NCBI GenBank assembly: GCA_964388535.1
Contig: CAYMBA010000001.1
Coordinates: forward strand, 15,602 to 65,191
Direction: 5' to 3'
Source: an uncultured bacterium
GTDB taxonomy: Bacteria; Eisenbacteria; RBG-16-71-46; CAIMUX01; WJJG01
Length of the DNA: 49,590 nucleotides
The notes below the pieces were generated by a model, which was not told the origin of the DNA, did not search any database, and worked only from the letters and a program-made list of their open reading frames with translations. How positions within the stretch are numbered: position 1 is the first letter of the stretch; each line of letters starts with the position of its first letter. Position numbers and translations under genes: made by a program. Of the stretch, positions 27,867 through 49,590 are shown one piece after another.

Positions 27867-27979
27867 GTGTGGAGAGGCCCATGGGATCCTGATAGGCTCG
27901 CGAGCATGAGGTCTGTGACGAGGCGTCGCCGCATTGCCGGCTTCCTCGGGGTCTCTCGATGCTCGGCAGCTTCGACCAA

Positions 27980-32028: not shown

Positions 32029-32048
32029 GATGCACCGCCACACTGGCG

Positions 32049-33032
32049 ATGATGGCGTGGCTGGCTCTGCTCGCAGCCTCCGGGTGCGGCTGGGAGAGAG
32101 ATCTACCCCCCCAGCCCGATGTCGTCATCGACATCCCCGAGCCCGGCACGTACAACCTCCGGGCAGTCTGGGATCTGGAGCAGCCCGGAGACGTCGTCAT
32201 CTCCGGTTCCTTCGTCTACGCGATCACAGGCTCCTCCCATGTCGGTGTCTACTTCGCCGACCGCTACGCACCCGAACCCCTGCCGATCGCCCGGGAGTAC
32301 GAAGGCCTGCTGGCCCCGGCCGCTCTCGCGGTGGCAAAGGCCGGTTCCACGTTCGTTGTCGTCGCCGACTCGGGTGATATGAGATGCAAGGTCTATTACT
32401 GGCTCGGAGGAGAGCCCCTCTCGAGTTTCACCGACAGCACCTGGACCCGATTCGGCGGCATCGCAGCCGACGACAGGCTGCGGATCTTCGTGGCCGACGC
32501 CGAGCGGGATACGATCGCCGCCTACGACCGTTGGGGCCACCCACTGGGACTCGTGGCCTCCAAGGGATCTGGAAGCGGCTACGTGCAATCTCCCCATGGG
32601 CTCGATTGGGCCGGTGGGGTCCTGGGTGTAGCGGATACCGGAAAGCGCTGGGTGCAGAGGCTAGATCCCGACTCCGCCAACACGCCCGTGGTCGTTGAAC
32701 CCATAGGCCCGGACGAAGACTGGTTCGACTCGCCCGTGGACGTCGCACTGGAGGATGATGCGGGTCACATCTACGTGGTGGATGCAAGCAGGCGCTTCGT
32801 GCTCAAGTTCGAGACACTGACCGGCGCCTTCGTCGATACGGTGGCCTCGCCCTCGAAGACTGCTCTCGATGTGCCGATGGTGCGGCCTCTCTACGTTTGC
32901 GCCAACGACACCCTCGTCTTCGTGAGCGAGCCGGACCTGAACAGGATACTCGTTGTTCGCCTTGCCGTGGAGACGCCGGAGAGCACATCGGTCCCCGCGC
33001 CGTTGCCCGGGGTGAAAAAGGAAGGCGAATGA
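32049..33032 (+). CDS. NHL-repeat beta-propeller lipoprotein
   Basis: Lipobox ASGC; repeated P-x-x-x-A...(I/V)(Y/F)V(A/V)D blades. Confidence 0.75.
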   Translation: MMAWLALLAASGCGWERDLPPQPDVVIDIPEPGTYNLRAVWDLEQPGDVVISGSFVYAITGSSHVGVYFADRYAPEPLPIAREYEGLLAPAALAVAKAGSTFVVVADSGDMRCKVYYWLGGEPLSSFTDSTWTRFGGIAADDRLRIFVADAERDTIAAYDRWGHPLGLVASKGSGSGYVQSPHGLDWAGGVLGVADTGKRWVQRLDPDSANTPVVVEPIGPDEDWFDSPVDVALEDDAGHIYVVDASRRFVLKFETLTGAFVDTVASPSKTALDVPMVRPLYVCANDTLVFVSEPDLNRILVVRLAVETPESTSVPAPLPGVKKEGE

Positions 33033-35092: not shown

Positions 35093-36654
35093 CGGGAGAT
35101 GGCAAACCGATGATCGGCCGGTGCAAAGAAGGTGCCCCTGTGCGCTCGGGCCCTGAGACCGCGCTCCGGTGTGCCGGGAACGGGTGGCGATCCTACGCCC
35201 TCTCCGCGCTGCTGGCGTTGCTCGTGCTTGCCGGCTGCAGCATCGAGCGCCTGCCGGCACCGGCCAACTCGCCGCCCGATACGCGCCTCGCCGTCCAATC
35301 CGACAGCCTGAGAGAGCAGAACTATCACATCATCCTTTCCTGGTGGGGCACGGACACAGACGGCGAACTGGCCGGGTTCGTATACAGATGGAGCGACCCC
35401 TGGGAACCCGCGGAGACCGACAGCGTCTGGGACGGTGCGCCCGGATGGGTCTTCACGAAGGCCACCAGGGACACCTTCGATTTCCCTGTGGGCGGAGTGA
35501 GGACGGAGGCGGTCTTCGAGGTGGCCGCGGTCGACGACGGCGGGCTCATCGACCCCACCCCGGCGTCACAGCGCTTCGTCCTGACCGACAGCCTGCCCAC
35601 CGTCCGCTGGGTCCTCACCCCGACGGTGAGCCTCGCCGCCGTAGCGTTCGCCTGGACGGCGGAGGACGCGGACGGGCGGGAGACCATAGCCAGAGCCGTG
35701 CTGTGGCTCGATACGCAAGAGGGTGAAGACCCGGCGGCCTCGAGGATCGAGGTTACCGGCGATACGATCGCTGTCTTCCTGCCACAGCACTTCCAGGGCC
35801 GATACGGACGGCGTACGGCATACATACAGGTCTTCGATGCCGCCGAAGCGCCCTCGAACATAGACTCATGCTCATGGACCGTGGAAGCGCCCGCAGGCGA
35901 GTACCTCCTCATCGACAATGCCTGGCCCGACAACGGCCCTGCTCGAAGCGATGATGAGTTCTGGCGCGAGAGGATGAGCGCTGTGGTTGGTGACAGCGCC
36001 TTTCACATATACGACGTCAGCCGGGAAGGACCGTTCCGGGTGCGCGAGGAGGTCGAGCACGTGCTGGGGCTGTTCAAGGGCGTTGTCTGGTACGGCACGA
36101 CTTGCTACTCGGGCAGTGCGCCTGCGGATCAAGCAATGCGTGAAGGCCTCGAGGTAGCAGAGGAAGGTATCTACGACTATGTGCTTTCAGGAGGAGGCAT
36201 CCTCATCACGGGCCACAACCTGATCGGGACCGAAGGAGGCCTGAGCCAGACCTTCTGGAACGAGCGCTTCGGGATCGATCACGTCTACCTGGCCTGCATC
36301 CAGGATGAATGGACGAGCAACGTCACCCTTCCCAGGCGTGCAATCCTGCGGTGCGGGCCACAGACCGGCGGGGTAGATTCCCTGAAAACGAAGGTCCCGG
36401 TCGCCAATACGGACTATTTCCGCCCCTCCGATCGCATAGACCCCCTTTTCTGGGTGGAACCAGGAACGGTGGACACTACCCTCTTCCCCGAGCACGCGAC
36501 CGAGCCATTCTACGTAGGTGCCACGGCGGAGAGGGGAGCAGGGAGGATGGCGCTGATCACAACTCGCGTTACGAGGCTCCAGGAGGGCGGTCAGGGCACA
36601 GGGACGCCTGAGGAGGCGCTTGAGAACGTGCTACGGTATCTCTTCCGCCTCTAG
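35089..36654 (+). CDS. Lipoprotein with Ig-like repeats and a C-terminal alpha/beta domain
   Basis: Lipobox LAGC, N-x-PPDT, W-x-G-x-D-x-DG, AVDDGGLIDPTPA. ATGA overlap; exact start uncertain. Confidence 0.7.
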   Translation: MTGDGKPMIGRCKEGAPVRSGPETALRCAGNGWRSYALSALLALLVLAGCSIERLPAPANSPPDTRLAVQSDSLREQNYHIILSWWGTDTDGELAGFVYRWSDPWEPAETDSVWDGAPGWVFTKATRDTFDFPVGGVRTEAVFEVAAVDDGGLIDPTPASQRFVLTDSLPTVRWVLTPTVSLAAVAFAWTAEDADGRETIARAVLWLDTQEGEDPAASRIEVTGDTIAVFLPQHFQGRYGRRTAYIQVFDAAEAPSNIDSCSWTVEAPAGEYLLIDNAWPDNGPARSDDEFWRERMSAVVGDSAFHIYDVSREGPFRVREEVEHVLGLFKGVVWYGTTCYSGSAPADQAMREGLEVAEEGIYDYVLSGGGILITGHNLIGTEGGLSQTFWNERFGIDHVYLACIQDEWTSNVTLPRRAILRCGPQTGGVDSLKTKVPVANTDYFRPSDRIDPLFWVEPGTVDTTLFPEHATEPFYVGATAERGAGRMALITTRVTRLQEGGQGTGTPEEALENVLRYLFRL

Positions 36655-36756
36655 CCTGCTGGAAGCAGGGCAAGGGGCACGCCCCCGAGCGCGCGGAACT
36701 ACTGGAGACTCAATCGATTGCGACTGCAGGTATGGGCCATGCAAGGGCTGCTTTCG

Positions 36757-36785
36757 TTGACCTCGGCCCGGAGGAGGGTTATACT
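36757..36785 (+). promoter_or_regulatory. Putative strong sigma70 promoter
   Basis: TTGACC, 17-nt spacer, TATACT, about 85 nt upstream of the ATG at 36869. Confidence 0.7.
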
Positions 36786-36868
36786 GAATTGGTTCCGGGT
36801 GCGGCTGATGTCGGCATTCTGGCCGGCATCGGAAGGGTTCTCCACGTGTCGAAGGAAAGGGCAACGTC

Positions 36869-38845
36869 ATGAAGGCGCGTCTTTTGGTTCTTATCGGTCT
36901 TCTGTCGCTCGCAGCAGCCACTGCTTCGGCAGAAGTCACCACTATCTTCGACATCCAGCTGGGTAGCTTCAATGAAGGCGATGAGGTAACCGTCCAGAAC
37001 GTGGTTGTCACCGCAAGCGGGCGTTTCGGGTTCTTCATCCAGGAGATAGAGCCTCATCCCACCTGGCAGAGGATGTACTCGGGAATCTGGGTTTTCACGA
37101 ACGGGTCCCACCTGGGTCAGATCCACAGGGGTGACGTCGTCGACGTGACGGGTATCTATGAGGAGTACTACGACTTCTCGGAGATCGATGTCTATCACTC
37201 CCCCTGCGGTGAGGATGTTGAGTGCGGGTTCGAGATCGTAGGCAGCGCCGAGGTGCCCGATCCCGTGCCGATGCTCATCAGCGAGGTCAACGACACCGGC
37301 GAATACAACGAGGCCTACGAGTCGGTGCTGATCCGCGTTGACCGCGAGGACAGCACCCTGTATGCCGGCGAGCCCAATCAGTACGACGAGTGGTACATCT
37401 ACACAGACGGCGTGGGCGCAGGAGATGCCCTCCTGGTCGACAGCTACTCCGCCGATCCCGAGGGAGACTTCGACTACCCGCTTCCATCGGAAGGCGACGA
37501 GTTCAGCTTCCTGGCCGGCATCCTCGTGTACAACTACGGCAGCTACAAGCTGGCCCCACGCAACTGCGTCGACGACATGGGAACCACGTGTCCTCCCGAG
37601 TTGCGGGGCATGTGGGCGTACGACAACACCAGGATCGATGTTCTCTTCGCTGTCCCGGTCGACGAGGCGAGCGCTGAGAATACGGACAACTACTACTTCG
37701 AGTCGGGTCTCGAGGTGCTCGCAGCGGAGCGGGATGAAAGCAATCACAGGATTGTGCACCTCACGACCGAAGAACAGACACCGGGGTACATCGATATAGG
37801 CTACGTCGAGGGCGTCCTCTCCGAAGACGATCTCGTGGAAATGCCGCCTGGCCAGTTCAGCTTCACCCAGGGCATAACACCCATCTACGACATCCAGCAC
37901 GTGGACGACCCGGTCCAGGACGACTCGCCGTATCTGGATGCGGTCGTTACGATCACAGGAAGGGTCACTTGTGTCGACGGCAACTACTACTTCCTGCAGG
38001 AAGGCGATGCTGGTCCGTACAAGCACATCTATGGACGGGTGGCGCGCACGGGTGATCTGGCGATTGGAGACAGTGTGAAGATCGCCGGCAAGGTGAGGGA
38101 GTACTACGGCGCGACATACGTCGGCTTCACACCGGGCGTGGTCCTCTATGAGAACCTCGGCCCTGCCACGGACCCCGTGATCGTGACCGACGTCTCGGCG
38201 AGCGAAATCCTCTATGACGCCGACGCCGGGGACGACAATCCCCCGGACGACAACGCGCCCGAGCCCTGGGAGGATGCTCTCATCCGGCTGAACGCGGAAG
38301 CCGTCATAGACAGCGTCGAAGGTGAGGCCGAGCTCTACGGGGAGTGGTGGCTGCTGGTCGATCCGGACACCTGCCGCGTAGACCTCAAGCACAGATTGAA
38401 CGAGGGCGGTGAAAACATCAGCTACGATCCCACACCGGGCGACACCCTCATGGTGAGCGGCATCCTCCGGTATGAATACGGGATCTACAAGATCGTGCCT
38501 CGCTTCGATGACGACATCGTGGTCCTCTCGCAGAGCGGTGTGGAAGAGACTGCCGACGGGCTGCACCTGAGGCTGTGGCAGACCGGGTCGAACCCATTCG
38601 GCTCGGCCACGACGGTCGCCTTCACCCTGAGTGAGCCGGCTGCAAGAGTGAGCCTCGGTATCTATGACGTGACGGGCAAGAAGGTGGCAACTCTCTTCGA
38701 GCGCAGCGGCGTTGCTGCCGGGACCTACATGGCGAACTGGAACGGCCGCGATGGATCAGGCGCAGCACTTGCCTCCGGCGTCTACTACTGCCGCCTGGAG
38801 GCGGACGGCAAGACCGCTACGAAGGAGATGATACTCGTCAAATAG
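36869..38845 (+). CDS. Secreted acidic protein: two OB-fold modules, Ig-like linker and T9SS/FlgD-like C-terminal domain
   Basis: Signal peptide; repeated I(F/Y)DIQ...F(I/L)QE...GD-x-V-x-(V/I)-x-G...EYY...(Y/W)E...IR...GIL-x-Y-x-YG-x-YK-x-x-PR; C-terminal NPF...IYDVTGKKV...WNG...ASGVYY...KEMILVK. Confidence 0.8.
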   Translation: MKARLLVLIGLLSLAAATASAEVTTIFDIQLGSFNEGDEVTVQNVVVTASGRFGFFIQEIEPHPTWQRMYSGIWVFTNGSHLGQIHRGDVVDVTGIYEEYYDFSEIDVYHSPCGEDVECGFEIVGSAEVPDPVPMLISEVNDTGEYNEAYESVLIRVDREDSTLYAGEPNQYDEWYIYTDGVGAGDALLVDSYSADPEGDFDYPLPSEGDEFSFLAGILVYNYGSYKLAPRNCVDDMGTTCPPELRGMWAYDNTRIDVLFAVPVDEASAENTDNYYFESGLEVLAAERDESNHRIVHLTTEEQTPGYIDIGYVEGVLSEDDLVEMPPGQFSFTQGITPIYDIQHVDDPVQDDSPYLDAVVTITGRVTCVDGNYYFLQEGDAGPYKHIYGRVARTGDLAIGDSVKIAGKVREYYGATYVGFTPGVVLYENLGPATDPVIVTDVSASEILYDADAGDDNPPDDNAPEPWEDALIRLNAEAVIDSVEGEAELYGEWWLLVDPDTCRVDLKHRLNEGGENISYDPTPGDTLMVSGILRYEYGIYKIVPRFDDDIVVLSQSGVEETADGLHLRLWQTGSNPFGSATTVAFTLSEPAARVSLGIYDVTGKKVATLFERSGVAAGTYMANWNGRDGSGAALASGVYYCRLEADGKTATKEMILVK

Positions 38846-38943: not shown

Positions 38944-41475
38944 TCAACTCGTATGAACAGCCGCACCGGAGCGATCGCGAAGCCCGAACTTGTCTAACAA
39001 TCTATAGGCGTGAGGGCGGCTGATCCCAAGAACTCGCGCTGCGGCACCGACACTACCCCGACACACCCGAAGTGCCAACTCCATCTCCGCGGGCTTCACA
39101 GGTCCCTCCGAACCGCGACGTCGAGCCGTACCTCCTCTGCCAGCGACAACGAGGAACTTGGCCAGCGCAACTTCAAGGCCATGGCGCTTCCACCAGGAGA
39201 CAGCCCGGCCCACCTCAAAAAGAAGCTCCCTAACGTTCCCTGGCCATTCACGCAGCGATATGAGGTCGACAATGTCACGAGATATGAAAGCCCCGGAGGA
39301 AGAGGGCTCTCCCCCACTCTTCTCCCAGAGATGCTGGATAAGCAGATCGAGGTCACATATCCGCTCCCTGAGAGAAGGGAGACGAATCGTCGCCCCGGCC
39401 AACCTATGGTACAAGTCTTCCCTGAAACGGCCCTCGCGCACGAAACCTTCCAAGTCCCGATTGGTTGCTGCCACAACACGTACATCCACCCGCTTTGCCT
39501 TCACTGAACCCAGGCGCTTCACCTCCCCCTTGTCGAGGAACCTCAGCAACAACCCCTGCTCTTTCTCACCGAGGTCGGCGATCTCATCAAGGAAGATCGT
39601 GCCCCCGTCTGCTGCTTCCAGACATCCCTTCCGATCTTGCTTGGCATCGGTGAAAGCCCCCTTCCTGACCCCGTGCAGCTCCGCCGCAAATACTGGGCCC
39701 CGCGCCGAGGCACAATTGATGGACAAGAAAAGGCCATGCCGACGGCTCAGCAGGTGCAGGCCCTCCGCGATCAACTCCTTGCCCGCCCCCGAGGGACCCA
39801 ATACCAGCACTGGAATTCTCTCCTCTGCCACCTCCTCGACCTCACGAAGGGCCGCCAGCGCGTCCGGATCTCTTGTCCTAAACCCGAGCCGCCACCAGAC
39901 ATCCGCGGGGGTCCACAGTCGTGCAAGCCGCGTCTCACGAGCGAAGCCTACACGCACGTCCACCAACTGCTCCAAACCAGTGGAGGCCGCGGAAGCCTCG
40001 GGTGATGCTCCAGGATAAGGCGACAAGAAACGGGCTGCGGCGCCTTCCCCAACCCGCTCCTCCAACCATCCCAACGGTCCCACAGCCGGGTTTTCAACCC
40101 AGAACACAAGGGCTTCTGACGCATGACTGCCACGAGTCCACTTCCGGGGCGGATCGTCCACTCCCACGCCTGAGCAGCAGGCGTACTCCAAGGATTCCTT
40201 CCACGCACACACAAGTGCCCGCTCGAGAACTTCACCGACCTCCTCAAGGCAGGAGCTGGCCTCCTGGAATCTTCGGTACGCCTCTGGGCAACGTCCCAAG
40301 TGAGCCAGTGCCGTTCCGGCGACCCGAAGCAGACTGCCTACCTCCCACGTCAACCCCAAGCGTTCTGCCCTCTCGAGCGCCGCAGTAGCCACCCCTAGAG
40401 CGTCCGTGTAGCGTTCTTCCAAGACCAACAGGGTGGCATCCTTCAGAGCCACTTCAATGCTGAGGTCGGCGTGAGACTCCAAGACGCCCCCGAAGTCACG
40501 CCTCATTGTCTCCAGAACCTCTCGCGCTTCCCGAGAACGCCCGTCCAAGATCAATGCCTCCACTAGGTACTCCAGGGCGGTTGCCTCCTCAAGTGACAGA
40601 CCGAGGCCCCTAAGCAAGCGGACAGCCTCCCGCAGCTTGGCGATCCCGGACTCCGGATCACCAGCCCTCGACTCTGCCCACCCGAGGCCCATCAACGCCT
40701 TGGCAACCGTCGTGTCGGACACGCTAGCAAAGCTGCCTCGGACACCCTCGAATGCTTCGATCGCACCCTTCAAGTGGCCAGATGCAGCCAGATGAAAGCC
40801 CCGACTTAGGGCGACTCTTGAAGCACTGGTGAAGTCACCCACTTGCCTGTACAAAGCTTCGGCCTCTGACAGAGCAGCCCACGCAATGGCCATGCTGCGA
40901 GTGCCTAGCGCCGCCATAGCCAGAGCCACGGAAGCGTCTGCTCTCAACGCAAGCAAACCCAGGGCCCTTGCTCTCTCTGCCATTCGGGCAGCGAGAGGCT
41001 TCGCATCCTCGGCACTGCCCTGACGCACCAAACACTTGACGGCTGCTAGCCCCGAGAATATCGCAACCCAGTCATCGCCTGTGCCCAGGCCGTCAAAGCC
41101 GGCATCACGCAACAGCGTCAGGCCCTCCCCCGGATCTCCGTCTTCAGCCAACCACGAAGCCAGAACGGATGCCCTCAGTAGTGAGTCCCTCGGGCTCAAC
41201 CCCTCCGGATCTTCCTCACGTAGCCTGGACACAACATCTCTCGCAGCTGCGGGACCAACCAAGTGAGCCGTGGCCACGCCCAGCAGGCACAGTCCCTGCA
41301 AGCGGTCCGATCGCCCCCATAGCGCCATACTGTCTACTTCCGCCTCCAGTACACGTTTCACCTCTTCCCAGGCCCCCAACTCAGCGTAAGCCCACGCCTC
41401 CACTATAGACCCAGATGCCAGCTCGCGTTGCCGGACCCCAGTGGGCTCCACAGGCCTTTTCCGTACCTTCGCCAT
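38944..41475 (-). CDS. Sigma54-dependent transcriptional activator (bEBP) with large N-terminal TPR-like domain
   Basis: Walker A GPSGAGKE, INCA, GAFTDA, Walker B IFLDEI, ATNRDL, FREDLYHRL, WPGNVREL, Fis-type HTH AARVLGISR. About 430 aa of helical repeats at the N-terminus; no receiver domain. Confidence 0.92.
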   Translation of the reverse strand: MAKVRKRPVEPTGVRQRELASGSIVEAWAYAELGAWEEVKRVLEAEVDSMALWGRSDRLQGLCLLGVATAHLVGPAAARDVVSRLREEDPEGLSPRDSLLRASVLASWLAEDGDPGEGLTLLRDAGFDGLGTGDDWVAIFSGLAAVKCLVRQGSAEDAKPLAARMAERARALGLLALRADASVALAMAALGTRSMAIAWAALSEAEALYRQVGDFTSASRVALSRGFHLAASGHLKGAIEAFEGVRGSFASVSDTTVAKALMGLGWAESRAGDPESGIAKLREAVRLLRGLGLSLEEATALEYLVEALILDGRSREAREVLETMRRDFGGVLESHADLSIEVALKDATLLVLEERYTDALGVATAALERAERLGLTWEVGSLLRVAGTALAHLGRCPEAYRRFQEASSCLEEVGEVLERALVCAWKESLEYACCSGVGVDDPPRKWTRGSHASEALVFWVENPAVGPLGWLEERVGEGAAARFLSPYPGASPEASAASTGLEQLVDVRVGFARETRLARLWTPADVWWRLGFRTRDPDALAALREVEEVAEERIPVLVLGPSGAGKELIAEGLHLLSRRHGLFLSINCASARGPVFAAELHGVRKGAFTDAKQDRKGCLEAADGGTIFLDEIADLGEKEQGLLLRFLDKGEVKRLGSVKAKRVDVRVVAATNRDLEGFVREGRFREDLYHRLAGATIRLPSLRERICDLDLLIQHLWEKSGGEPSSSGAFISRDIVDLISLREWPGNVRELLFEVGRAVSWWKRHGLEVALAKFLVVAGRGGTARRRGSEGPVKPAEMELALRVCRGSVGAAARVLGISRPHAYRLLDKFGLRDRSGAAVHTS

Positions 41476-41541
41476 TCCACAACCTCCGCTGCAGCGTTCT
41501 CTCTCACCAAACCAAGTCCTGTTGCACCGACACGCCGGGTT

Positions 41542-41820
41542 CTACTCACCGGTCTTTTCACAGTGCTCCAATCTCGGCAGCTGCCGGGCTCCAGCATCTT
41601 CTCTCAAACCCTTCGTGCACCTCCAACTTCGCCACAGAACGTTCTGGACGCCCCCATCAACCCCGTTCCTGTAAGGGAAGTCGTCCGGGATTCGAATCTC
41701 CGCCATTGCTGGCTTCCTCTGTGCAAAGGCAAGGGCGTCACCCGGCAGCACCGCCAGAAGGCCAAGCGCCCCTATGATTCCCAGTGCTAAACTCAGCAAC
41801 CTTCCTAGGTCTCTCTGCAT
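41542..41820 (-). CDS. Small putative secreted protein (92 aa)
   Basis: MQRDLGRLLSLALGIIGALGLLAVLPGDALAFA signal-like N-terminus; G-rich RBS; fills the gap between two co-oriented genes. Confidence 0.5.
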   Translation of the reverse strand: MQRDLGRLLSLALGIIGALGLLAVLPGDALAFAQRKPAMAEIRIPDDFPYRNGVDGGVQNVLWRSWRCTKGLREDAGARQLPRLEHCEKTGE

Positions 41821-41851
41821 TTGCCCACCCCCATTGACTTCGGTCCAATCC

Positions 41852-43111
41852 CTACCGTGGATATTCTCCAATCTCCGCAAGCCTATATGCCGCTACTGCA
41901 ACAGGGCCCTCGTAGCGTGTTGACGCAGGGTCTTCGATCCCTGCAAGGGATCCCTTTGCCGCGTCAAAGCCCTCTAGCACGACCAGGATACTCTCCGCAG
42001 GCTGAACGACCTCGTCAAACATGGGGTCAACCCGCCCTAGCAATACCGCCTGCCATAGAAACCGTCCGTCAACCGAAAGCACATCAAGCACGCCTGCCAC
42101 GGAATCTGGCAATCCAAACCACCCAGAACTGGAACCGACCCAAATCCGCTCCCCAAACACTGCCAAGGTATAAACATCCGGTCGGTACTCCGAGACCCGA
42201 GCTTCCACCGTGCCTTCGAACTCCCGCATCAGATTCGCACGCGCAACCTCCATCTCCAGCTCCGTCCTCCGCACATGTTCATGCTCGATTCGGATAACTC
42301 GCTCAGTTCCCCCTCCGAACGAGTAAACATCAATGCGGTACTCTAGGTGTTGAGGGCAGAAGAACACCTGCTTCCCTGCCGCGTCCACGAGGGGTCTTAG
42401 CCCATCTCTTACCTCATCTCGCCGTATGGCCCCCCGGACGAATACGAATTCATTGCTCCAGTGCTCGGCGACTAGTCTCCCAGTCCAATCAAAACTCCTG
42501 CAGAAATGACCAGCGGAAATCCTTACGTTGTTTCCTTCTCGCCTCCATCGGGCGTACCAACCAATTCCTACAACGCCGTCGTCGGTACTGGCGCACCCAG
42601 CTAGCCCCATCATCTCTTGGCTCCCGCTTTCCAGTGTCACGGTCCGACCCGGCGACCCGTCCAGCGGGACTATGGCAACTGAAGCACGTCCGAAGACGAT
42701 TCCGATCGAATCCGAAGACGCCCAAAACAAGTCGAGAGGTTCGCGGAACTCCCCAGGTCCTTCTCCACCGTGGCCCAAACGGCCAACAAGGTTCCCGCGA
42801 CGGTCGAGCACGTGGACACAATCATACGCGTAATCAAGAAGGTAGTATCTCCCCGCGGAATCGACGAGAACGTCCTGGACTAGCCCAAAGGGAACTTCTC
42901 CACCCGAGTCGGGCCATTCCCAGCGCCACGCCGGCAGCAAGCGGTAATAACGACGGCTAGGTTCTCGAGGAGGTGTAACGTAGACGTACTCGACACTGTC
43001 AGCTCCCTTGCTTCGCGCCGTCCGGCCGCTCTGATCTGGCGGTCCGCAAGCGAGAGACAGGAGCAATGGCAAAGCCAGTAGGTCGAGCAGCCTCCACCGC
43101 AACAGGATCAC
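41852..43111 (-). CDS. 6-bladed beta-propeller lipoprotein (NHL/TolB-like)
   Basis: Lipobox SLAC, DVLVDSAGRYYLLD, GHGGEGPGEF, repeated D-x-x-G turns. Start either GTG 43111 or TTG 43189. Confidence 0.8.
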   Translation of the reverse strand: MILLRWRLLDLLALPLLLSLACGPPDQSGRTARSKGADSVEYVYVTPPREPSRRYYRLLPAWRWEWPDSGGEVPFGLVQDVLVDSAGRYYLLDYAYDCVHVLDRRGNLVGRLGHGGEGPGEFREPLDLFWASSDSIGIVFGRASVAIVPLDGSPGRTVTLESGSQEMMGLAGCASTDDGVVGIGWYARWRREGNNVRISAGHFCRSFDWTGRLVAEHWSNEFVFVRGAIRRDEVRDGLRPLVDAAGKQVFFCPQHLEYRIDVYSFGGGTERVIRIEHEHVRRTELEMEVARANLMREFEGTVEARVSEYRPDVYTLAVFGERIWVGSSSGWFGLPDSVAGVLDVLSVDGRFLWQAVLLGRVDPMFDEVVQPAESILVVLEGFDAAKGSLAGIEDPASTRYEGPVAVAAYRLAEIGEYPR

Positions 43112-43234
43112 GGGACAGCCCGGAGCACCAGGATTGAGTAGCTTCCCCACGAGCCGTCTCCGAGGGTGGCGCAGACCTTTGGTCCGCAAACAGGGATTGG
43201 CTGCGATCCATGTACCGCTTCCGCGTCGACTGTA

Positions 43235-43263
43235 AATCTACCGCCCGTGCACGAACGTGTCAA
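43235..43263 (-). promoter_or_regulatory. Sigma70 promoter for the propeller / small protein / bEBP operon
   Basis: Minus strand TTGACA, 17-nt spacer, TAGATT. Confidence 0.65.
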
Positions 43264-43555
43264 GACCTGACTCGCTAGCTGAGGAGCTTTGGGCCCTCCG
43301 GTCGCGGCCTTTGGTTGGCCAGCTCAAGCCTGGAGCAGACGCCCATCATTTCCGCATCTCACACGTGATCCCACCCTAGTGTCTCCCCGAAGATCGCCGG
43401 GCCTTCGAAGAGACATCACTCGTGCGCATTCCTGCCGCTTCTATCGGAAACCCAACACCCGAGAGCACCGCCGAGCTGACACAGAGTGTTGGAAAAGCCT
43501 CATATTCCAAGAGGACAACGCATTCGTCCGCTCCGCTCTGCCCGACTCCCGAGGC

Positions 43556-43572
43556 TTGGCACAGTTCTTGCA
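43556..43572 (+). promoter_or_regulatory. Sigma54 (-24/-12) promoter
   Basis: TTGGCACAGTTCTTGCA has exact GG-N10-GC spacing and matches TGGCAC-N5-TTGCW; 65 nt upstream of the peptide ATG; a bEBP gene lies in the same locus. Confidence 0.88.
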
Positions 43573-43636
43573 ATTGCCGCCATACGGACTCAGTACGATT
43601 CAGGATCCACCCACTAACCTCAAGGAGGTAGTCGTC

Positions 43637-43921
43637 ATGGCAAAGTTTTCGCGATCACTTTTCGTAAGGTTGCTCCCAGCGGTGCTAGCCTTCTCTGTTC
43701 TGACAGGGACCGTGCTCTTTGCGCATCCGCCCAAGGCCAGCGCAGCCCAGCAGGTCGTCGTTATCTTCAAACCCTGCTGCCAGGCCACCTGTGAGGGCGG
43801 AAGCTGCACCTGCTTCGGGGCGCCCTGTGAATGTTCTTGCGTATTGGGAATGCCCCGATGCATCTGCGGGGGAAGCTTGTACATCTCAGAGAACATTGAC
43901 TGGTGCGCACCCTCTCGGTAG
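43637..43921 (+). CDS. Secreted cysteine-rich peptide precursor (94 aa, 11 Cys)
   Basis: RBS AAGGAGGT (43622-43629); Sec signal ending ASA; mature part AQQVVVIFKPCCQATCEGGSCTCFGAPCECSCVLGMPRCICGGSLYISENIDWCAPSR. Confidence 0.88.
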   Translation: MAKFSRSLFVRLLPAVLAFSVLTGTVLFAHPPKASAAQQVVVIFKPCCQATCEGGSCTCFGAPCECSCVLGMPRCICGGSLYISENIDWCAPSR

Positions 43922-43923
43922 GC

Positions 43924-43958
43924 GGAGTCGGGAGAGGGCAACGCCCCTCTCCCGCTCC
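43924..43958 (+). other. GC-rich RNA hairpin directly after the peptide gene, no U-tract
   Basis: CGGGAGAGGG-caacgc-CCCTCTCCCG, extended by GGAG/CTCC. Confidence 0.65.
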
Positions 43959-43990
43959 CCCACATCCCTCTGTGAGGAGGAAGTAGCACA

Positions 43991-45178
43991 ATGCTGCGGG
44001 GCGTCGCACGCCTATCTCGCATTGTTCTTATCTACCGCCGCAAGTTCGTACGACCCCATGGCTGGCGCACAGTCTGGTGCTTCCTAGTGAGCGCTCTTCT
44101 AAGCGCTGCCTTCGCCGCAGAGACATTCAGCACTGCCCCACAGCATAGCGACCACCAAGTTCCACTCGAAGTACTCCACGTCCCTGCTGCCGGAATCATT
44201 GATCTCGCCCCAATTGGCGGACAGGTCGTCTCAGCAGCGCTTTCGCCTGAATGCTTGTCACTGTACCTTCTTGACCGTTCCGCCTCTCGCTTACTGTCCA
44301 TTCCCCTTCACCACGGCGGACCTTCTGGTGAAGTAGAAACCATCGCTCACCTCCAGTGCGAGAATCCTACTTGCGTCGCTGTTGGGAGCTCCGGGCGCGT
44401 CTACGTCGCAGATCCCGGACGCCAACTGGTCTTGGTGATTGACCCCGCGAGTGGCCGCGTCGGCACAGTTCCTGCTCCTGGCCTGGCCGGCCCAGCCAGG
44501 CGGATAGACGTGTTGGGCGATACGCTGTTTGTACCCGCCCATCCGGCCACAGACGCGACGCTGGTGAGGTACTATGTAGGCTCCGATTTGCACCCCGTCA
44601 GAATAGATAGCCTCCTCCTCGAGCCAAGCGAAATACCAGGGTTGATGCTATCAGTAAGGGCCACTCTTACCCGCGCGTGTGTGACGCGTCTTGCCTATGG
44701 GGGGAGGAACGTCTTGGCGGTAGCGCTCCAAGCGGTTCCGCGAGTCTACATAGTAGATGAAAACGAAAACGAACTATGGGGTTTCACACTGAGGACCCCC
44801 GAAATACGGCGCGTGCGGAGTCACTTTCACAGGCTCCGATCCCTTGACACCCCAGGCTGGGCAAGGCGGTGCTCGATGCAGTTCGAATGGGACGAGATTA
44901 TCGAAGATATGATCGCGGCTAGCACGCCTACAACGACATCTCTAGCTGTGTATGTAATGGGAATGGTAACATCCCACAAACACCTCTTCCTTCTCATGGA
45001 CGGGGTTCTCTCAGAGCTCACACCCCGCGGAAAGCTTGTGCGCCGGTTTGTTCCGGTCAGCCCCGACGGGGACACACTGACGTTGCATGGAATTGCGCAG
45101 GGCTGTGGGGGCCTGTGCGCGGGAGTAGCTCGGCACGAGAACTGTGCTGTCGTGTTCTCGCTCCCAGACCCGAGGTGA
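43991..45178 (+). CDS. Exported beta-propeller (NHL/SMP-30-like) protein
   Basis: RBS GAGGAGG; hydrophobic signal segment; LYLLD, PTCVAVGSSGRVYVADPG, IDVLGDTLFV blades. Confidence 0.7.
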   Translation: MLRGVARLSRIVLIYRRKFVRPHGWRTVWCFLVSALLSAAFAAETFSTAPQHSDHQVPLEVLHVPAAGIIDLAPIGGQVVSAALSPECLSLYLLDRSASRLLSIPLHHGGPSGEVETIAHLQCENPTCVAVGSSGRVYVADPGRQLVLVIDPASGRVGTVPAPGLAGPARRIDVLGDTLFVPAHPATDATLVRYYVGSDLHPVRIDSLLLEPSEIPGLMLSVRATLTRACVTRLAYGGRNVLAVALQAVPRVYIVDENENELWGFTLRTPEIRRVRSHFHRLRSLDTPGWARRCSMQFEWDEIIEDMIAASTPTTTSLAVYVMGMVTSHKHLFLLMDGVLSELTPRGKLVRRFVPVSPDGDTLTLHGIAQGCGGLCAGVARHENCAVVFSLPDPR

Positions 45179-45280
45179 TTCTTCTGCTGCAGAGCAAGGA
45201 CCAAAGGTGCGCCTCACAGCCGTTCGTGGAACCGATACTCCCGACGCATCGGGCCCCGTGACGCGACCAAACGCGGCGCA

Positions 45281-45309
45281 TTGACAGCGCAGCGCATAGC
45301 AGTTAGGGT
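45281..45309 (+). promoter_or_regulatory. Putative sigma70 promoter for the permease operon
   Basis: TTGACA, 17-nt spacer, TAGGGT. Confidence 0.55.
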
Positions 45310-45455
45310 TCCAACAGTCAGTTCGAAGGACGTGGCACTCCATATACGCCAATACATGTCGTGCTTCTGGACTGGCTTGCATGTTGCTCAGCCTCACCCG
45401 GATTGCAGTCGACGGTGAGGAATGCGATCGCCCGACGAAGGGGCGGTGTCCACAG

Positions 45456-46862
45456 ATGATCGGCTACCTGGCAGCCCGCGAGATCCGCTCTCTGGTCCTC
45501 TCCTGGAGGGCCATCGTCCTGGTTGCGGGGATGATCCTGCTGGCGGTGGCAGTGACTCTTTCTTCCAGTGCACGCTATTCCGACGCCACCCTCTCTGCCC
45601 GTGCATCGACCCGCCAGCACGCAACCTGGCTGCGCAAGGCACGCGCCTACATCGAGATGATCCCGGCTATCGAAGTCGAACCCAACCCGCTGCAAGGACT
45701 CTCGGGCAGCGGATACAGGCCCCTGGCCACTACGGTCGTCATCCCGGGCTGGTACGCCCCAGTTTCTCTAATCTCGGGCCGGGAGGCCACCAACCCCTTT
45801 CTCGATGCACTCGCCGATCTGGACCTGGCCCGGGTGATCAGTCTTCTGGCAACGCTGCTCGTCGTCTTCCTCGGGTTCGATGCGATCACGGGGCCCAGGG
45901 AACGGGGGGTGTTGAAGTCCGTAATGGCCCTTGGAGCCACCCCCAGGCAGATCCTGCTCTCGAAGTACCTGGCATGCGCGGTCGTAGCCGGCATCGCAGC
46001 AGCGGTGGCGCACCTGGTCTGGTACGTCGGCATGCTCCTGGCAGGGCACTCCGAGCTCGCCTCGGCCCCTGCCATTGGGGCCGTGGTGGCCCACCTGGTC
46101 CTCTCTCTCTTGCTCGTTTCGGTCTTCGCCGCAGGCACGATCGCTGTCTCCTCGCTTAGCAGCAGTTCCGGCCAGTCGCTGCTCACCCTCATTCTCCTGT
46201 GGATGCTGGCTGCGGCGGTCGCCCCTGACCTCACATCGCAGGTCGCCCGGTTGCTCAGACCCGACCCGCCCCCGCAGGCAGCCGCCGCCGGAACGTTCAC
46301 CCCTGGGCGTGTTCCGGGCGAAACGGCCGAACCGCCGACATCCGAGTACGCAGCCATGAGCGTCTGCATGCTGCCGCCGCTCAGGGACTACGGTGACGAG
46401 TTCGTAGCCGGCTTGTACGACGAACAGCGGATCAACAGGCTGCTCGAGCAGTGCACGCTGAACTATCTCCTTGGGTTGATCAGCCCCGTGGGCTGTTTCC
46501 TGGCGTCATCGGCAAAGATCACGGGCCTGGATCCGATCGCACACGTGGCGCTCCTTAGAGAGTGCCTTCACTACCAGCAGACACTGAAGGAGTGGCAGGA
46601 AAGCAAGGTTCGCGCGGCTCCGCACAGAAGCAGGGTCGTCATCTCCTCCGACCCACCGCTGGATACGCGGGGCTTTCCTTTCATCTCCAGGGGGCGGGTG
46701 CTGGAGCGGGACCTCACGGAAGCAGGTCTCTCGGGAATCCGCATGCCGTGGCTCGGTCTGGCCGCCCTCCTGCTGTGGAACCTCGCCATGCTGGCGCTGC
46801 TGCTGGCTCCCGCAGTGCGGCCGGGAATCGGCGGAGCCGTACACATCCTGAGGAGCAGCTGA
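45456..46862 (+). CDS. ABC-2 type transporter permease subunit
   Basis: N-terminal AAREIR, periplasmic loop, LGFDAITGPRERGVLK, ILLSKY, SSGQSLL, ISP motif, C-terminal TM. Confidence 0.85.
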   Translation: MIGYLAAREIRSLVLSWRAIVLVAGMILLAVAVTLSSSARYSDATLSARASTRQHATWLRKARAYIEMIPAIEVEPNPLQGLSGSGYRPLATTVVIPGWYAPVSLISGREATNPFLDALADLDLARVISLLATLLVVFLGFDAITGPRERGVLKSVMALGATPRQILLSKYLACAVVAGIAAAVAHLVWYVGMLLAGHSELASAPAIGAVVAHLVLSLLLVSVFAAGTIAVSSLSSSSGQSLLTLILLWMLAAAVAPDLTSQVARLLRPDPPPQAAAAGTFTPGRVPGETAEPPTSEYAAMSVCMLPPLRDYGDEFVAGLYDEQRINRLLEQCTLNYLLGLISPVGCFLASSAKITGLDPIAHVALLRECLHYQQTLKEWQESKVRAAPHRSRVVISSDPPLDTRGFPFISRGRVLERDLTEAGLSGIRMPWLGLAALLLWNLAMLALLLAPAVRPGIGGAVHILRSS

Positions 46863-48307
46863 TGATCCTCTGGGTCGCTCGAAATACCGTGCTCAGAATC
46901 GCCCGGTCCCGCAGCCTCGTCATACTCGTCCTGCTCTGGCTCGCGCTCATGGTCCTAGGCGGTGCCCTCTCGGGCACGGAGCGGCTGCGGGCACTGGAAG
47001 AGAAGTCCTCCATATCCGCCAGGGCGGCACAGGAAAACCCCTTCGAGAGTACCATGGCATGCTCGGATCCGCCGGCGCTCTTCCATGTGACACAGTCCTG
47101 GCTGCCCGGACTCTCCCAGTGCCTGCGCTTGAGCCCCAGTAGTGTGGAGTACGCGGACCCGGTCACGAGGAGGCGATCCCTGCTCGCGAGGGTGAACGGC
47201 CTGGACTGGGTGTTCGTCTTCGCCGTGCTGGGAGGGATCATCGCGATCTGCCTCTCCTTCGATGCCTGCAACGGGGAGATCTCCAGCAGGAACCTGCGCT
47301 TGATGCTCACCAGCGGCCTGAGGCGCTGGGAGTTCCTCGCCGGTCGCTTCGCCGGGACGATGGCCGTACTCTGCACATCTTCCCTGGCGGGGGCGATCGC
47401 CTCGAGTGGGGCGTACTTCGGTGTGGCCGGAATCTCCCCTGCCCCATCTCACCTCTGGCGCCTGGGTGCGGCCCTGCTCCTTGGATGGGCATGCCTCGCC
47501 TTGGCGGTGGGCCTCGGGCTCTTCTTCTCGAGTGCACTGCGCCGCCCCGCCGCATCGCTGGCTGCAGGGCTCCTCGTGTGGATCATCGCTTCGATAGCGG
47601 TCCCCGAAGCAGCCCCCAGCCTGGCGCCGGCACTGCGTCCAATCGTCTCGCTGCGCAAGTTCCAGAGGATGATCTCGAGCCAGGCTTCCGCGGCGGCCGT
47701 GTCTTTCCAGTCGGAGCGCGAGGGGGCCGCTCTGAGGGAGATAGTGGAGCGCGAGATCCCGGACTGGATGAAGGCGAAGGAGGTGGAAGCGCTCGGCAGG
47801 CGTTTCAGCGCCGAGCAGGAAGAGAAGCGCTGGGAGAGGGAAATCGAGATCCGCAGGTTGAGGCGCCGCTACGACCGCCGGCGCCGCGACCAGGTGGCGA
47901 TGGCGACGTCACTGGCGCTCGCTTCGCCCTCGGGGCTCATGCGGTGGGCGCTCGAGCGCCTCTGCGACGCAGGGTGGGCCAGATACGCACGCTTCATAGA
48001 GGCCGTCGAGGCCTACCAGGAGCCCTACTCCCGATACGTCCGCAGTAAGACGCTCGAGAACCTGGATAAGGCATCTTTCCGCAACTCGGTCTCCAGTTGG
48101 TACAAGGGCTACGAGCTCGTGATCCAGACCGAACCATACCTGCCGCGGGGAGCAGTCGACGCGAGCGACATGCCGCTCTTCGAGCTGCAGCCGATCGAGG
48201 TCTCCGACTCCGCCGCTGCATGGGTGCTGGGAACCGCAGCCCTGCTGCTGCCCTCTCTCATCCTGCTCGTTGCAGGCTACATCATGCTGGCCCGGAGGGA
48301 TGTCTGA
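46862..48307 (+). CDS. ABC-2 type transporter permease subunit (paralog)
   Basis: TGATG coupling, LDWVFV, SFDACNGE, LAGRF, GLFFSS, ASP, C-terminal RRDV. Confidence 0.85.
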   Translation: MILWVARNTVLRIARSRSLVILVLLWLALMVLGGALSGTERLRALEEKSSISARAAQENPFESTMACSDPPALFHVTQSWLPGLSQCLRLSPSSVEYADPVTRRRSLLARVNGLDWVFVFAVLGGIIAICLSFDACNGEISSRNLRLMLTSGLRRWEFLAGRFAGTMAVLCTSSLAGAIASSGAYFGVAGISPAPSHLWRLGAALLLGWACLALAVGLGLFFSSALRRPAASLAAGLLVWIIASIAVPEAAPSLAPALRPIVSLRKFQRMISSQASAAAVSFQSEREGAALREIVEREIPDWMKAKEVEALGRRFSAEQEEKRWEREIEIRRLRRRYDRRRRDQVAMATSLALASPSGLMRWALERLCDAGWARYARFIEAVEAYQEPYSRYVRSKTLENLDKASFRNSVSSWYKGYELVIQTEPYLPRGAVDASDMPLFELQPIEVSDSAAAWVLGTAALLLPSLILLVAGYIMLARRDV

Positions 48308-48319
48308 GGAGGCAAGGGA

Positions 48320-49590
48320 ATGAAAGAAAACCGGTCCCGCTTCTTCTGGATCGCGTGGCTTCTCCTGTGGCTGGCCCCGATCCATCCGGCGGCCTCGGAG
48401 TCCGCCGGGCAGGTGAGCAGGCTCGGCCTCACGGCAGAGGAAAACGTTTCCGCCTACCGCATCCGCGAGGCGCTGCTCAGACTCCGTGAGGCCAGAATGG
48501 ATTTCGAGACCGCCGAATCGCTCCACACCTGGGGACTCATATCCTCCAACGAACTCACCCGGCGGCGGATCCACTGGCGGGCCGAGTCACTCCGGGTCTC
48601 CTCGGTCGTACGTGCAGCCGTCGGCGAAGCGATCCGGATCATGGTCGCGGAAGCCGCCCGCTACCGCGCCGCCGACGGCGCCCTGCACGTTTCTCTGCTG
48701 CTGCGCGTGGCGAACGAGGGCCTCCCACCCGGGCTCGAGATTCCCCCCTACCTCTTCGCAGGCGGTCTTCACCGCTGCGAGGTCCTCTACGTTTCCCTTC
48801 TCCATGGCGGAGCCATCGTGGGCCAGCCCTACGAGATGCGCTGCAGAATGCCGCGGGCGGGCCAGTCGATACGGCTCGACTTCCGCCTGCTGGAAGAGAC
48901 CGACCGCGTGGTGGTGCGGATGGATCACTGCGGAGCGACTGAAGAGAAGAACATCATCCTCACCGAGCTCGGCACTACGGGCGGTGGCGTCAAGATCAGG
49001 TGCAACCTGATATCCCAGGAGGTGCCCCTGGGCGAGACGGCCCACTTCCCGATAACGATCGAGCATCCCATCGGCACCGAACACTCAGTCAGGCTCGAGG
49101 TCTCAGGGCTGCCCCGTGAGATGCGCTGCGGCTTCATCGACCCGGCCAAGGGCGCGCGCCTGACGAGCCTGCTGCTTCCGGCCACGGAAAGGGAGTATCC
49201 GGTCGACCTCCAGGTCTCGGCACCCGAGCGGGTGAGCCGGGAGGTCGTCCCTGGAGAAGCCCTGGCCTTCCTTGTCAGGATCCGGGCGGAGGAGAGTTCC
49301 ACAGCCGGTGCACCCTCGGGCGGGGCGGTCCTCGACTCGCTTCAGCTGGAGGTGATCCCCAGGGGCCGCGGCGAGCTCAGTGTCCGCTGCGCCAATCTCT
49401 ACGTCACCGCTGCGAAGGGGAAAACCACCTCCACGAAGATCATGGTCTCCAACACAGGCACCGGAGCCGTGCAGAACATACAGGTCACACTCGAGGGCCC
49501 CTTGGGATGGGAACTGGGCACGGAACCCGCAGCTCTCTTCGATCTGCCCCCGGGCGGGTCACGCGAACTGGAGGCACTGTTTGCAGCACC
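48320..49590 (+). CDS. Exported NEW3 (NPCBM-associated) Ig-domain protein, truncated by window end and absent from the ORF track
   Basis: My translation from ATG 48320 stays open to the end: MKENRSRFFWIAWLLLWLAPIHPAAS..., helical FETAESLHTWGLISSNEL, ...VSNTGTGAVQNIQVTLEGPLGWELGTEP...DLPPGGSRE. RBS GAGGAGG. Confidence 0.8.
   Translation, partial: MKENRSRFFWIAWLLLWLAPIHPAASESAGQVSRLGLTAEENVSAYRIREALLRLREARMDFETAESLHTWGLISSNELTRRRIHWRAESLRVSSVVRAAVGEAIRIMVAEAARYRAADGALHVSLLLRVANEGLPPGLEIPPYLFAGGLHRCEVLYVSLLHGGAIVGQPYEMRCRMPRAGQSIRLDFRLLEETDRVVVRMDHCGATEEKNIILTELGTTGGGVKIRCNLISQEVPLGETAHFPITIEHPIGTEHSVRLEVSGLPREMRCGFIDPAKGARLTSLLLPATEREYPVDLQVSAPERVSREVVPGEALAFLVRIRAEESSTAGAPSGGAVLDSLQLEVIPRGRGELSVRCANLYVTAAKGKTTSTKIMVSNTGTGAVQNIQVTLEGPLGWELGTEPAALFDLPPGGSRELEALFAA

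Follow-up and report, generated by a model that had tools for sequence, protein, structure and literature searches.

In the NVEALA loci of Bacteroidota, the function of which is poorly understood, genes for small signal-peptide proteins lie beside six-bladed propellers of family DUF5128. In methylamine dehydrogenase, a propeller serves as the large subunit (MauB, seven-bladed) and a small, exported, disulfide-rich protein as the small subunit (MauA), with MauD as a thioredoxin-like helper, and the RRNPP regulators (Rap, NprR, PlcR and PrgX) have been described in Firmicutes. Here we describe a locus on a 49,590-nt stretch of DNA (the window; G000:C1:15602-65191) from an uncultured soil-type bacterium of the Eisenbacteria, the genome of which, G000, was assembled into 323 contigs totalling 2.93 Mb. 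An operon behind an exact sigma54 promoter encodes a Cys-rich peptide with a Sec signal peptide (the peptide) together with a beta-propeller that is predicted to bind it. Peptide and propellers form an undescribed module, which in G000 is under sigma54 control as read from its promoter. Judged by sequence, the peptide family is new and very rare, and its members always lie beside, or are fused to, beta-propellers of their own. For comparison, the Eisenbacteria relatives G004, G015 and G019 and the metagenome loci L095, L096 and L098 were used; tallies over 206 genomes include the unpublished G072, and no specific claim rests on loci of that genome.

The peptide gene (nt 43637..43921, + strand), identified as an open reading frame (ORF) and by the family profile, encoded 94 aa with 11 Cys, of which about 58 aa would make up the mature part, and was preceded by the ribosome-binding site AAGGAGG 8 nt 5′ of the ATG at 43637. 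Alignment of 13 distinct sequences gave the framework C-x-C..C..C..G-x-C-x-C-x-C-x-C..C-x-C-G, with no conserved Trp column. When a peptide profile of four rows was run with HMMER against 1.84 billion representative proteins, 10 of them matched at E <= 1e-3. Eight of these were real members, namely signal-peptide peptides of 72-94 aa and propeller 3 (see below), the window's own two being counted; the remaining two were rejected as eukaryote-like repeat noise. With an independent profile, for which only the 11 non-G000 peptides were used, the window peptide ranked first of 54,758 G000 ORFs (E 0.0012; next 0.15). The peptides of the window, G004 and G015 matched no Pfam family, NVEALA included, and no NCBIfam family. 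Against PDB sequences, the peptide profile had a single match, attributable to chance (E 0.15), an Atlas search with the peptide was uninformative (top score 0.79), and word-index searches of 5.8 billion proteins returned the peptide itself alone and then, additionally, the G004 peptide. No description of such a peptide–propeller system was found in the titles and abstract openings of the literature.

Context could be read at 6 distinct loci, and at every one of them two kinds of propeller were encoded along with the peptide, an NHL propeller (A-type) and a DUF5128-like one (B-type). The G004 locus was revealed by a weak match to propeller 2, the A-type propeller next to the peptide gene in the window, and comprised a gene for a protein here called X (CxxC-containing, no Pfam match), an A-type NHL/DUF5128 propeller, an ORF of 78 aa with a signal peptide, 12 Cys and the C-terminal sequence CSCGAGMGF, and a B-type propeller. 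The G015 locus encoded, in a row, an A-type propeller, a Cys peptide of 79 aa and a protein similar to propeller 1, the B-type propeller of the window. Thus, in both of the other genomes in which the propeller query found a full-length A-type propeller, a Cys peptide adjoined it and a B-type propeller was also present. Scores above the DUF5128 cut-off of 22.9 bits were reached by the A-type propeller of G004 (35.9 bits) and by the B-type propeller of L096 (25.5 bits). Among the 206 Eisenbacteria genomes, full-length matches to the A-type profile were confined to G000, G004 and G015, generic NHL-repeat segments being all that matched in 155 others, and matches to the peptide profile at E <= 1e-12 were confined to the same three (in G000, to the peptide and the tail of propeller 3), with weak partial matches (E 1e-3 to 9e-3) in 11 further genomes. 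Elsewhere the A-type profile found only the G015 protein and generic NHL proteins, and a scan of genome contigs gave no further full-length A-type propeller. Two candidate A-type relatives, P0012 and P0021, were rejected as ordinary NHL repeats with no Cys tail. Matches in Obscuribacterales and Phycisphaerae were likewise set aside, being partial NHL matches that lacked a Cys-rich ORF close by. When three of the peptides were used to scan metagenomes, four loci resulted, three of them distinct, each with an A-type propeller, a B-type propeller and a peptide; one had a GC content of 46%, within a range of 46% to 65% over the loci. L098 carried two tandem peptide genes, directly after which lay a convergent gene for an M3 oligopeptidase F (L098:8762-10693, - strand), the sole peptidase near any member.

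Propeller 2 (nt 43991..45178, +; 395 aa) matched the NHL repeat with 22.1 bits (cut-off 20). It shared 27% identity over 181 aa (E 1e-10) with propeller 3, a second A-type propeller of 430 aa that extension of the contig placed beyond the window (window-equivalent 50751-52043, +), and was also homologous to the G004 and G015 propellers. AlphaFold modelled propeller 3 as a six-bladed NHL propeller (core pLDDT, the predicted local distance difference test, about 90), the best PDB matches of which were the NHL domains of Brat and TRIM proteins (template modelling score, TM, by target 0.73-0.80; E 1e-12 to 1e-14). Its last ~40 residues formed a Cys-rich tail in which 7 Cys were in register with the peptide core (40% identity over 37 aa). 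The triple C-x-C pattern occurred in 3-4 of the 54,758 six-frame ORFs of the genome, two of these being the peptide and the propeller 3 tail in one 8.4-kb operon; the pattern was chosen after the family had been seen, and shuffled ORFs give 0-2. Synteny at 6 of 6 loci, occurrence in the same 3 of 206 genomes, the fusion and a passed complex prediction indicate a genuine peptide gene that goes together with the propellers.

For that prediction, residues 43-395 of propeller 2 (7-row alignment) and residues 37-94 of the peptide (13-row alignment) were used. The median score was 0.80 (runs 0.88, 0.80 and 0.01), and the best of three controls reached 0.00. The score is reached by 58 of 80 solved complexes and by 2 of 110 mismatched pairs, a calibration that is only rough, own alignments having been used. 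Runs agreed on at least 55% of contacts, with a partner pLDDT of at least 48. The predicted contacts joined peptide residues 76-91 to residues 275-282, 313-323, 336-338 and 364-366 of propeller 2. On the peptide, this segment is the conserved C-x-C-G-x3-aromatic end and, on propeller 2, the contacted residues lie beside R276 and H366, which are invariant in the A-type family. We know of no like complex, so the prediction is unlikely to have passed by reproducing a solved structure. In this model, the conserved C-terminal strand of the peptide probably binds the A-type propeller.

The operon was separated from a divergently oriented gene cassette by an intergenic region of 447 nt, in which TGGCACagttcTTGCA at nt 43557-43572 (+), 65 nt ahead of the peptide start codon, matched the sigma54 -24/-12 sequence TGGCAC-N5-TTGC exactly. 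It was the single such site in the window (0.10 expected from shuffles; at least one site in 10 of 100 shuffles) and one of 13 in the whole genome. About 150 nt 5′ of the -24 element lay a palindrome with 13-nt arms, TGTCTCCCCGAAG-N10-CTTCGAAGAGACA (nt 43380-43415), the sole TGTCTC-N18-30-GAGACA of the genome and a candidate enhancer (upstream activating sequence). Between the peptide and propeller 2 genes, a hairpin without a T-tract was predicted (nt 43918..43963, +; -40.6 kcal/mol, z -4.4, equalled by 0 of 200 shuffles). G000 had rpoN, as shown by two strong Sigma54_DBD matches (168 and 145 bits), and Sigma54_activat matched at 23 places, 18 of them with E below 1e-16. Altogether three Sigma54_DBD matches, two of them strong, were located at C44:4284-4724, C70:1556-1990 and C224:625-1104, so the genome may carry two or three rpoN paralogs. 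The exact -24/-12 promoter was specific to G000 among the peptide loci, the G004 operon being preceded by a one-mismatch site.

The divergent cassette, on the - strand, consisted of propeller 1, a small secreted ORF and a bacterial enhancer-binding protein (bEBP). The bEBP (nt 38944..41475, 843 aa) comprised an N-terminal tetratricopeptide repeat (TPR) superhelix of ~520 aa as its sensor, a sigma54 AAA+ domain and a weak C-terminal HTH_8. Sigma54_activat (PF00158) scored 177.3 bits (cut-off 20.2) and the Walker motif GPSGAGKE was found, as expected of such an AAA+ domain, while HTH_8 scored 20.2 bits, under its cut-off of 22, and TPR_12 and TPR_16 were weak, TPR_12 falling below its cut-off. 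In an N-terminal profile of bEBP homologs, TPR_12 was present in 6 of 7 and TPR_MalT in 4 of 7. The TPR halves were homologous across cassettes, and the TPR profile matched NprR (E 3.6e-4; a second NprR entry 2.1e-4) and Rap (E 0.68) amid many generic TPR proteins. In clade relatives, the loop that contacts sigma54 was mostly GAYTGA, otherwise GAYTDA. Propeller 1 (nt 41852..43189, 445 aa) was assigned to the B-type on a DUF5128 match of 16.9 bits, below the cut-off of 22.9, and is a probable lipoprotein, given its lipobox-like N-terminus (...LLLSLAC). The small ORF between propeller 1 and the bEBP (nt 41542..41820, with a longer start at 41880) encoded 92 aa from MQRDL..., with a signal-peptide-like N-terminus and no Pfam or NCBIfam match.

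This cassette was found repeatedly. Propeller 1 belongs to a multi-copy DUF5128-like family with paralogs at at least 9 places in G000; on C4, C67 and C84, propellers were followed on the same strand by bEBPs of 828-857 aa, and on C265 a cassette start of the same kind was interrupted by the contig end. The family occurred in 28 of the 206 Eisenbacteria genomes and in all 14 other genomes of the bacterium's own family, usually in several copies. At 20 propeller 1-family loci of relatives, a long TPR-bEBP lay directly downstream in 7 cases and the Cys-peptide family in none. Five places in G000 and 6 of the 7 related cassettes had a small signal-peptide ORF just 5′ of the bEBP, after a propeller or between two propellers. 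The 12 small ORFs compared (5 places in G000, 6 relatives) all aligned at G-x-x-[DE]-[DE]-aromatic/aliphatic-P, an acidic–aromatic–Pro motif situated about 15 residues past the predicted cleavage site, and had nothing else in common. The regulator half of the locus is thus a multi-copy cassette of this bacterial family that does not travel with the Cys peptide. No sigma54-like site was found 5′ of 8 B-propeller cassettes, the window's own included, and one-mismatch sites in related cassette loci preceded no plausible genes. An exact TGGCAC-N5-TTGC did occur at 20225, about 460 nt 5′ of the cassette at G000:C4:14163-20225 (-), which consists of two propeller 1-family propellers, a small secreted ORF and a TPR-bEBP and is the sole other cassette with an exact site. 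On a 2.7-kb contig, G000:C263:722-994 (+) encoded a 90-aa signal-peptide ORF with 8 Cys and a Trp-rich C-terminus (...CWCWYCFDWDW), 5′ of a 205-aa secreted ORF and a propeller 1-family propeller.

Downstream of propeller 2 on the + strand were genes for two ATP-binding cassette (ABC) type 2 permeases, nt 45381..46862 (ABC2_membrane_2, 63.6 bits) and 46862..48307 (ABC2_membrane_2, 70.3 bits; DUF3526, 38.3 bits), for a 493-aa NEW3/NPCBM_assoc protein with a C-terminal transmembrane segment (48320..49590 in the window, true end at window-equivalent 49801), and for an ABC ATPase beyond the window (window-equivalent 49822-50685; ABC_tran, 102.5 bits). Two ABC2_membrane_2 permeases with an ABC_tran ATPase make up an ABC-2 exporter; the ATPase resembled the DrrA, GldA and lantibiotic-protection families at scores below the family cut-offs. 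At G000:C14:7881-12846 (+), a paralog of this unit (ABC-2 permease, NEW3 protein, ABC ATPase) was encoded with neither propellers nor a Cys peptide, and one further relative of the unit was found in G019. The propeller-free paralog led us to reject this unit as a defining part of the system, and we read it as self-contained and locally recruited.

The X protein was encoded at 3 of the 6 peptide loci (G004, L095 and L098), its common motif being P-x-x-C-x-x-C-x-L-x-x-Y. In the Atlas, it resembled TlpA, redoxin and Sco proteins (0.93-0.94 by features, TM 0.38-0.46 by structure), which is to be taken as a lead only. The X protein of G004 (L006:2806-3981, -) had two CxxC motifs (CPEC and CTTC) and resembled tandem TlpA/redoxin domains by Atlas features and structure, with no Pfam or NCBIfam match; a PDB search with the X-protein profile gave Coronin-6 only (E 0.058). 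A TlpA/redoxin-like CxxC protein at some loci points to thiol/disulfide handling of the Cys framework.

The operon was bounded on its 3′ side by a convergent gene past propeller 3 on the same contig. This gene (L001:13722-14168, -; window-equivalent 52120-52566), at the contig end, had no Pfam match; its repeated G-G-x-F and W-D-G motifs suggest another propeller-like repeat protein. On the other side of the locus, a same-strand block (window 27959-38845, +) encoded a TonB-dependent-receptor-like protein (CarboxypepD_reg and Plug), a further protein with NHL repeats (32004-33032), two large proteins lacking Pfam matches and a 658-aa protein with a C-terminal FlgD_ig domain; the FlgD_ig domain of a G015 neighbour also weakly matched a type IX secretion tail family. 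In a PADLOC search of the cluster, only generic AAA+/HTH (RtcR-like) and ABC-ATPase domains were matched, with no match for the other 8 proteins. The first-pass annotation of the window, which had been made from the letters alone, named a divergent layout, all elements of which were recovered by ORF calling, Pfam and motif scans. The sigma54 promoter it had called near-consensus turned out to be exact, and the sigma70 promoter it had placed before propeller 1 was present as a pair of hexamers, TTGACA-17-TAGATT (nt 43235..43263, -, read from 43263 to 43235), at chance level (1 site, 1.2 expected in shuffles). It had also noted that no radical SAM, YcaO, Lan, MNIO or peptidase gene was present, and searches with Pfam and NCBIfam bore this out for all 10 cluster genes, those beyond the window included; nor were modifying enzymes of the ribosomally made and post-translationally modified peptide (RiPP) classes found by these searches in the examined neighbours at G004, G015, L095, L096 and L098. 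Its suggestion of a self-contained module failed for the window, the end of the NEW3 gene, the ABC ATPase and propeller 3 lying past the window end. The extension it had proposed supplied the ATPase and no modifying enzyme.

On balance, we think it probable that a sigma54-dependent operon makes a Sec-exported Cys mini-protein and a dedicated periplasmic A-type propeller as its partner. The operon would be read in the order peptide, A-type propeller, two ABC-2 permeases, NEW3 protein, ABC ATPase and A-type propeller with a fused peptide-like tail, with the bEBP most likely acting from the upstream palindrome to switch on the -24/-12 promoter. The peptide would be a small ligand or subunit of the A-type propeller and not a free RiPP precursor, its C-x-C-G-x3-aromatic strand would dock on the most conserved face of the propeller, and the last gene would carry the same kind of Cys-rich module fused to the propeller C-terminus. 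The B-type propeller, probably a lipoprotein, would be a constant companion that in G000 sits in the divergent cassette, and the ABC-2/NEW3/ATPase unit may be an accessory for export, immunity or surface handling. As to function, we lean towards an envelope-located peptide–carrier pair for competition or signalling. The first-pass annotation had seen one peptide system in the whole locus. The linkage of peptide and propellers stood (6 of 6 loci, 3 of 206 genomes, fusion and complex), the pairing with propeller 2 passed in a complex prediction of the kind it had proposed, and the module proved unlike characterised systems in family matches and in the literature as far as titles and abstract openings go; the sigma54 promoter, the bEBP and the ABC-2/NEW3 genes were not conserved with the peptide, so that of its proposed synteny only the co-occurrence of propellers with peptides held.

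Several observations weigh against this interpretation. One of the three complex runs failed (0.01), and the alignments behind the prediction were shallow, with 7 and 13 rows. The window peptide is the most divergent member of its family by the independent profile; modelled alone it gave a small beta-sheet with a pLDDT of 67, and a Foldseek search of the PDB with this model found nothing below E 6. As to the fusion, a BLAST comparison of tail and peptide across the genome was non-significant (E 0.29, equalled by two unrelated matches), the independent, non-G000 profile did not retrieve the propeller 3 tail, and the tail had a pLDDT below 50 in the AlphaFold model, with no confident docking. 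The metagenome loci were found via the peptide query, and their synteny is thus partly ascertained. No -24/-12 match within 2 mismatches was found 5′ of the modules in G015, L095, L096 and L098, where an adjacent bEBP was also missing, and the sigma54-contact loop of the bEBP is GAFTDA, not GAFTGA. The ABC-2/NEW3/ATPase unit was absent from all 5 other peptide loci, and the X protein was not found in G000. The stretch was contained in three DNA sequencing runs, all of one study, with no RNA run among those listed as containing it.

Other readings differ in what they make of the peptide. It might be a bacteriocin or toxin-like product that the propellers process, carry or give immunity to, with the ABC-2 unit providing self-protection of the LanFEG type. 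The peptide is small, has a Sec signal and varies in sequence outside its conserved Cys framework; this would suit such a product, as would the tandem genes in L098, the hairpin after the peptide gene (as with precursor genes expressed in excess), the patchy distribution (3 of 206 genomes, at loci of widely differing GC content), the below-cut-off resemblance of the ATPase to DrrA, GldA and lantibiotic-protection proteins, and the dedicated regulator. We hold this to be unlikely: the five other loci lack the ABC unit, a paralog of which occurs without propellers, it would be unusual for a toxin to be joined to the end of the protein that carries it, as in propeller 3, and among the cluster genes neither a protease or modification enzyme nor a PADLOC or bacteriocin family match was found. 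A very unlikely alternative is that the peptide handles metal as a periplasmic metallothionein-like thiolate binder (Cu, Zn) served by the propellers, a Sco/TlpA-like protein and a NosY-like ABC-2 transporter. No gene matched metallothionein, copper-chaperone, NosD or NosL families, no metal-responsive regulator lies at the locus, and X has CxxC instead of the CxxxC-His that is the Sco signature; set against this are the dense C-x-C motifs, the SCO1/SenC clusters among the X look-alikes and the membership of the permeases in ABC2_membrane_2, to which NosY presumably belongs. The small beta-sheet model of the peptide suits a disulfide ladder equally.

The cassette also allows a reading as a signalling circuit, in which the cytoplasmic TPR domain of the bEBP would sense an exported, processed and re-imported peptide (the small motif ORF or the Cys peptide) in an RRNPP-like manner, the operon being the sigma54 output. 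The small signal-peptide ORF directly 5′ of the TPR-bEBP at 5 G000 places and in 6 of 7 related cassettes, with its motif in 12 of 12, and the multiplicity of the cassette, like that of Rap-Phr-type pairs, would fit, as would the NprR and Rap matches of the TPR profile; the NprR match is, however, no better than those to OGT, IFIT and designed TPRs. With no oligopeptide importer in the locus, no -24/-12 site beside 7 other cassettes and the role of the B-type propeller left unexplained, such a circuit appears distinctly unlikely. A wider proposal, which we likewise consider unlikely, is that A-type propeller, B-type propeller and C-x-C-ladder mini-protein would form a triad, a new extracytoplasmic machine with the mini-protein as a detachable or fused subunit, and that the cassette would add peptide-sensing signalling between cells, with a sigma54 output that switches the triad on; to our knowledge, a machine of this kind has no characterised counterpart. 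High-GC DNA yields many spurious ORFs, and the small ORF could be unexpressed or its neighbours unrelated. With a strong ribosome-binding site, an exact sigma54 site, family members elsewhere with the same neighbours and an exact phyletic match, a chance neighbourhood is highly improbable.

A Sec-exported mini-protein paired with an A-type propeller, the reading we prefer, would add to the known exported peptides a new Cys-rich family with a dedicated protein partner and a concrete predicted interface, whose members have no Pfam or NCBIfam name and no PDB relative. The peptide travels with propellers and with no known modifying enzyme, so that enzyme-centred mining pipelines probably miss the family. 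The cassettes suggest that some bEBPs use large TPR sensors encoded beside small secreted peptides. Should these prove to be ligand–receptor pairs, the range of peptide quorum sensing would come to include sigma54 control, in a phylum that is uncultured, and RRNPP-like logic would occur outside Firmicutes.

Compared with the NVEALA loci, the present locus is similar in having a small Sec peptide gene next to six-bladed propeller lipoproteins, and DUF5128 is matched above cut-off in an A-type propeller (G004) and a B-type propeller (L096). It differs in that the peptides lack the NVEALA domain, and in the Cys framework, the presence of two propeller types, the fusion and the phylum; among the best full-text literature matches, there was no mention of NVEALA or DUF5128. 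With MauB, MauA and MauD it shares a pair of propeller and Cys-rich small subunit encoded with a thioredoxin-like helper. In contrast to that system, the 13-row peptide alignment has no conserved Trp pair for tryptophan tryptophylquinone, no MauG-like haem protein or haem-peroxidase family is found in the cluster, and the propeller is a six-bladed NHL propeller with no sequence similarity detected. The abstract of one article (PMC6107167) describes NHLRC2-type proteins as a thioredoxin-like module with an NHL propeller. They resemble the present system in linking a thioredoxin-like CxxC module to an NHL propeller and differ from it in that here the two are separate genes, at 3 of 6 loci only, the thioredoxin-likeness of X coming from Atlas look-alikes alone.

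The regulator cassette resembles RRNPP systems in that a TPR receptor is encoded beside a small Sec-type propeptide gene, in several paralogous pairs per genome, and in its weak match to NprR. Here, however, the output is a sigma54 AAA+ domain and not an XRE-type helix-turn-helix or a phosphatase, the cassette includes a propeller, the host belongs to another phylum and binding is only putative; we know of no RRNPP member with a sigma54 AAA+ output. With the sigma54/bEBP operons of the NtrC/NifA class, the locus shares the AAA+ Sigma54_activat domain, the exact site, rpoN in the genome, the divergent layout and the upstream palindrome. Unlike in that class, the sensor of the bEBP is a TPR domain of ~520 aa instead of a receiver, GAF or PAS domain, its loop is GAFTDA, and the regulator would share a transcript with a propeller and a small secreted ORF, in a multi-copy cassette.

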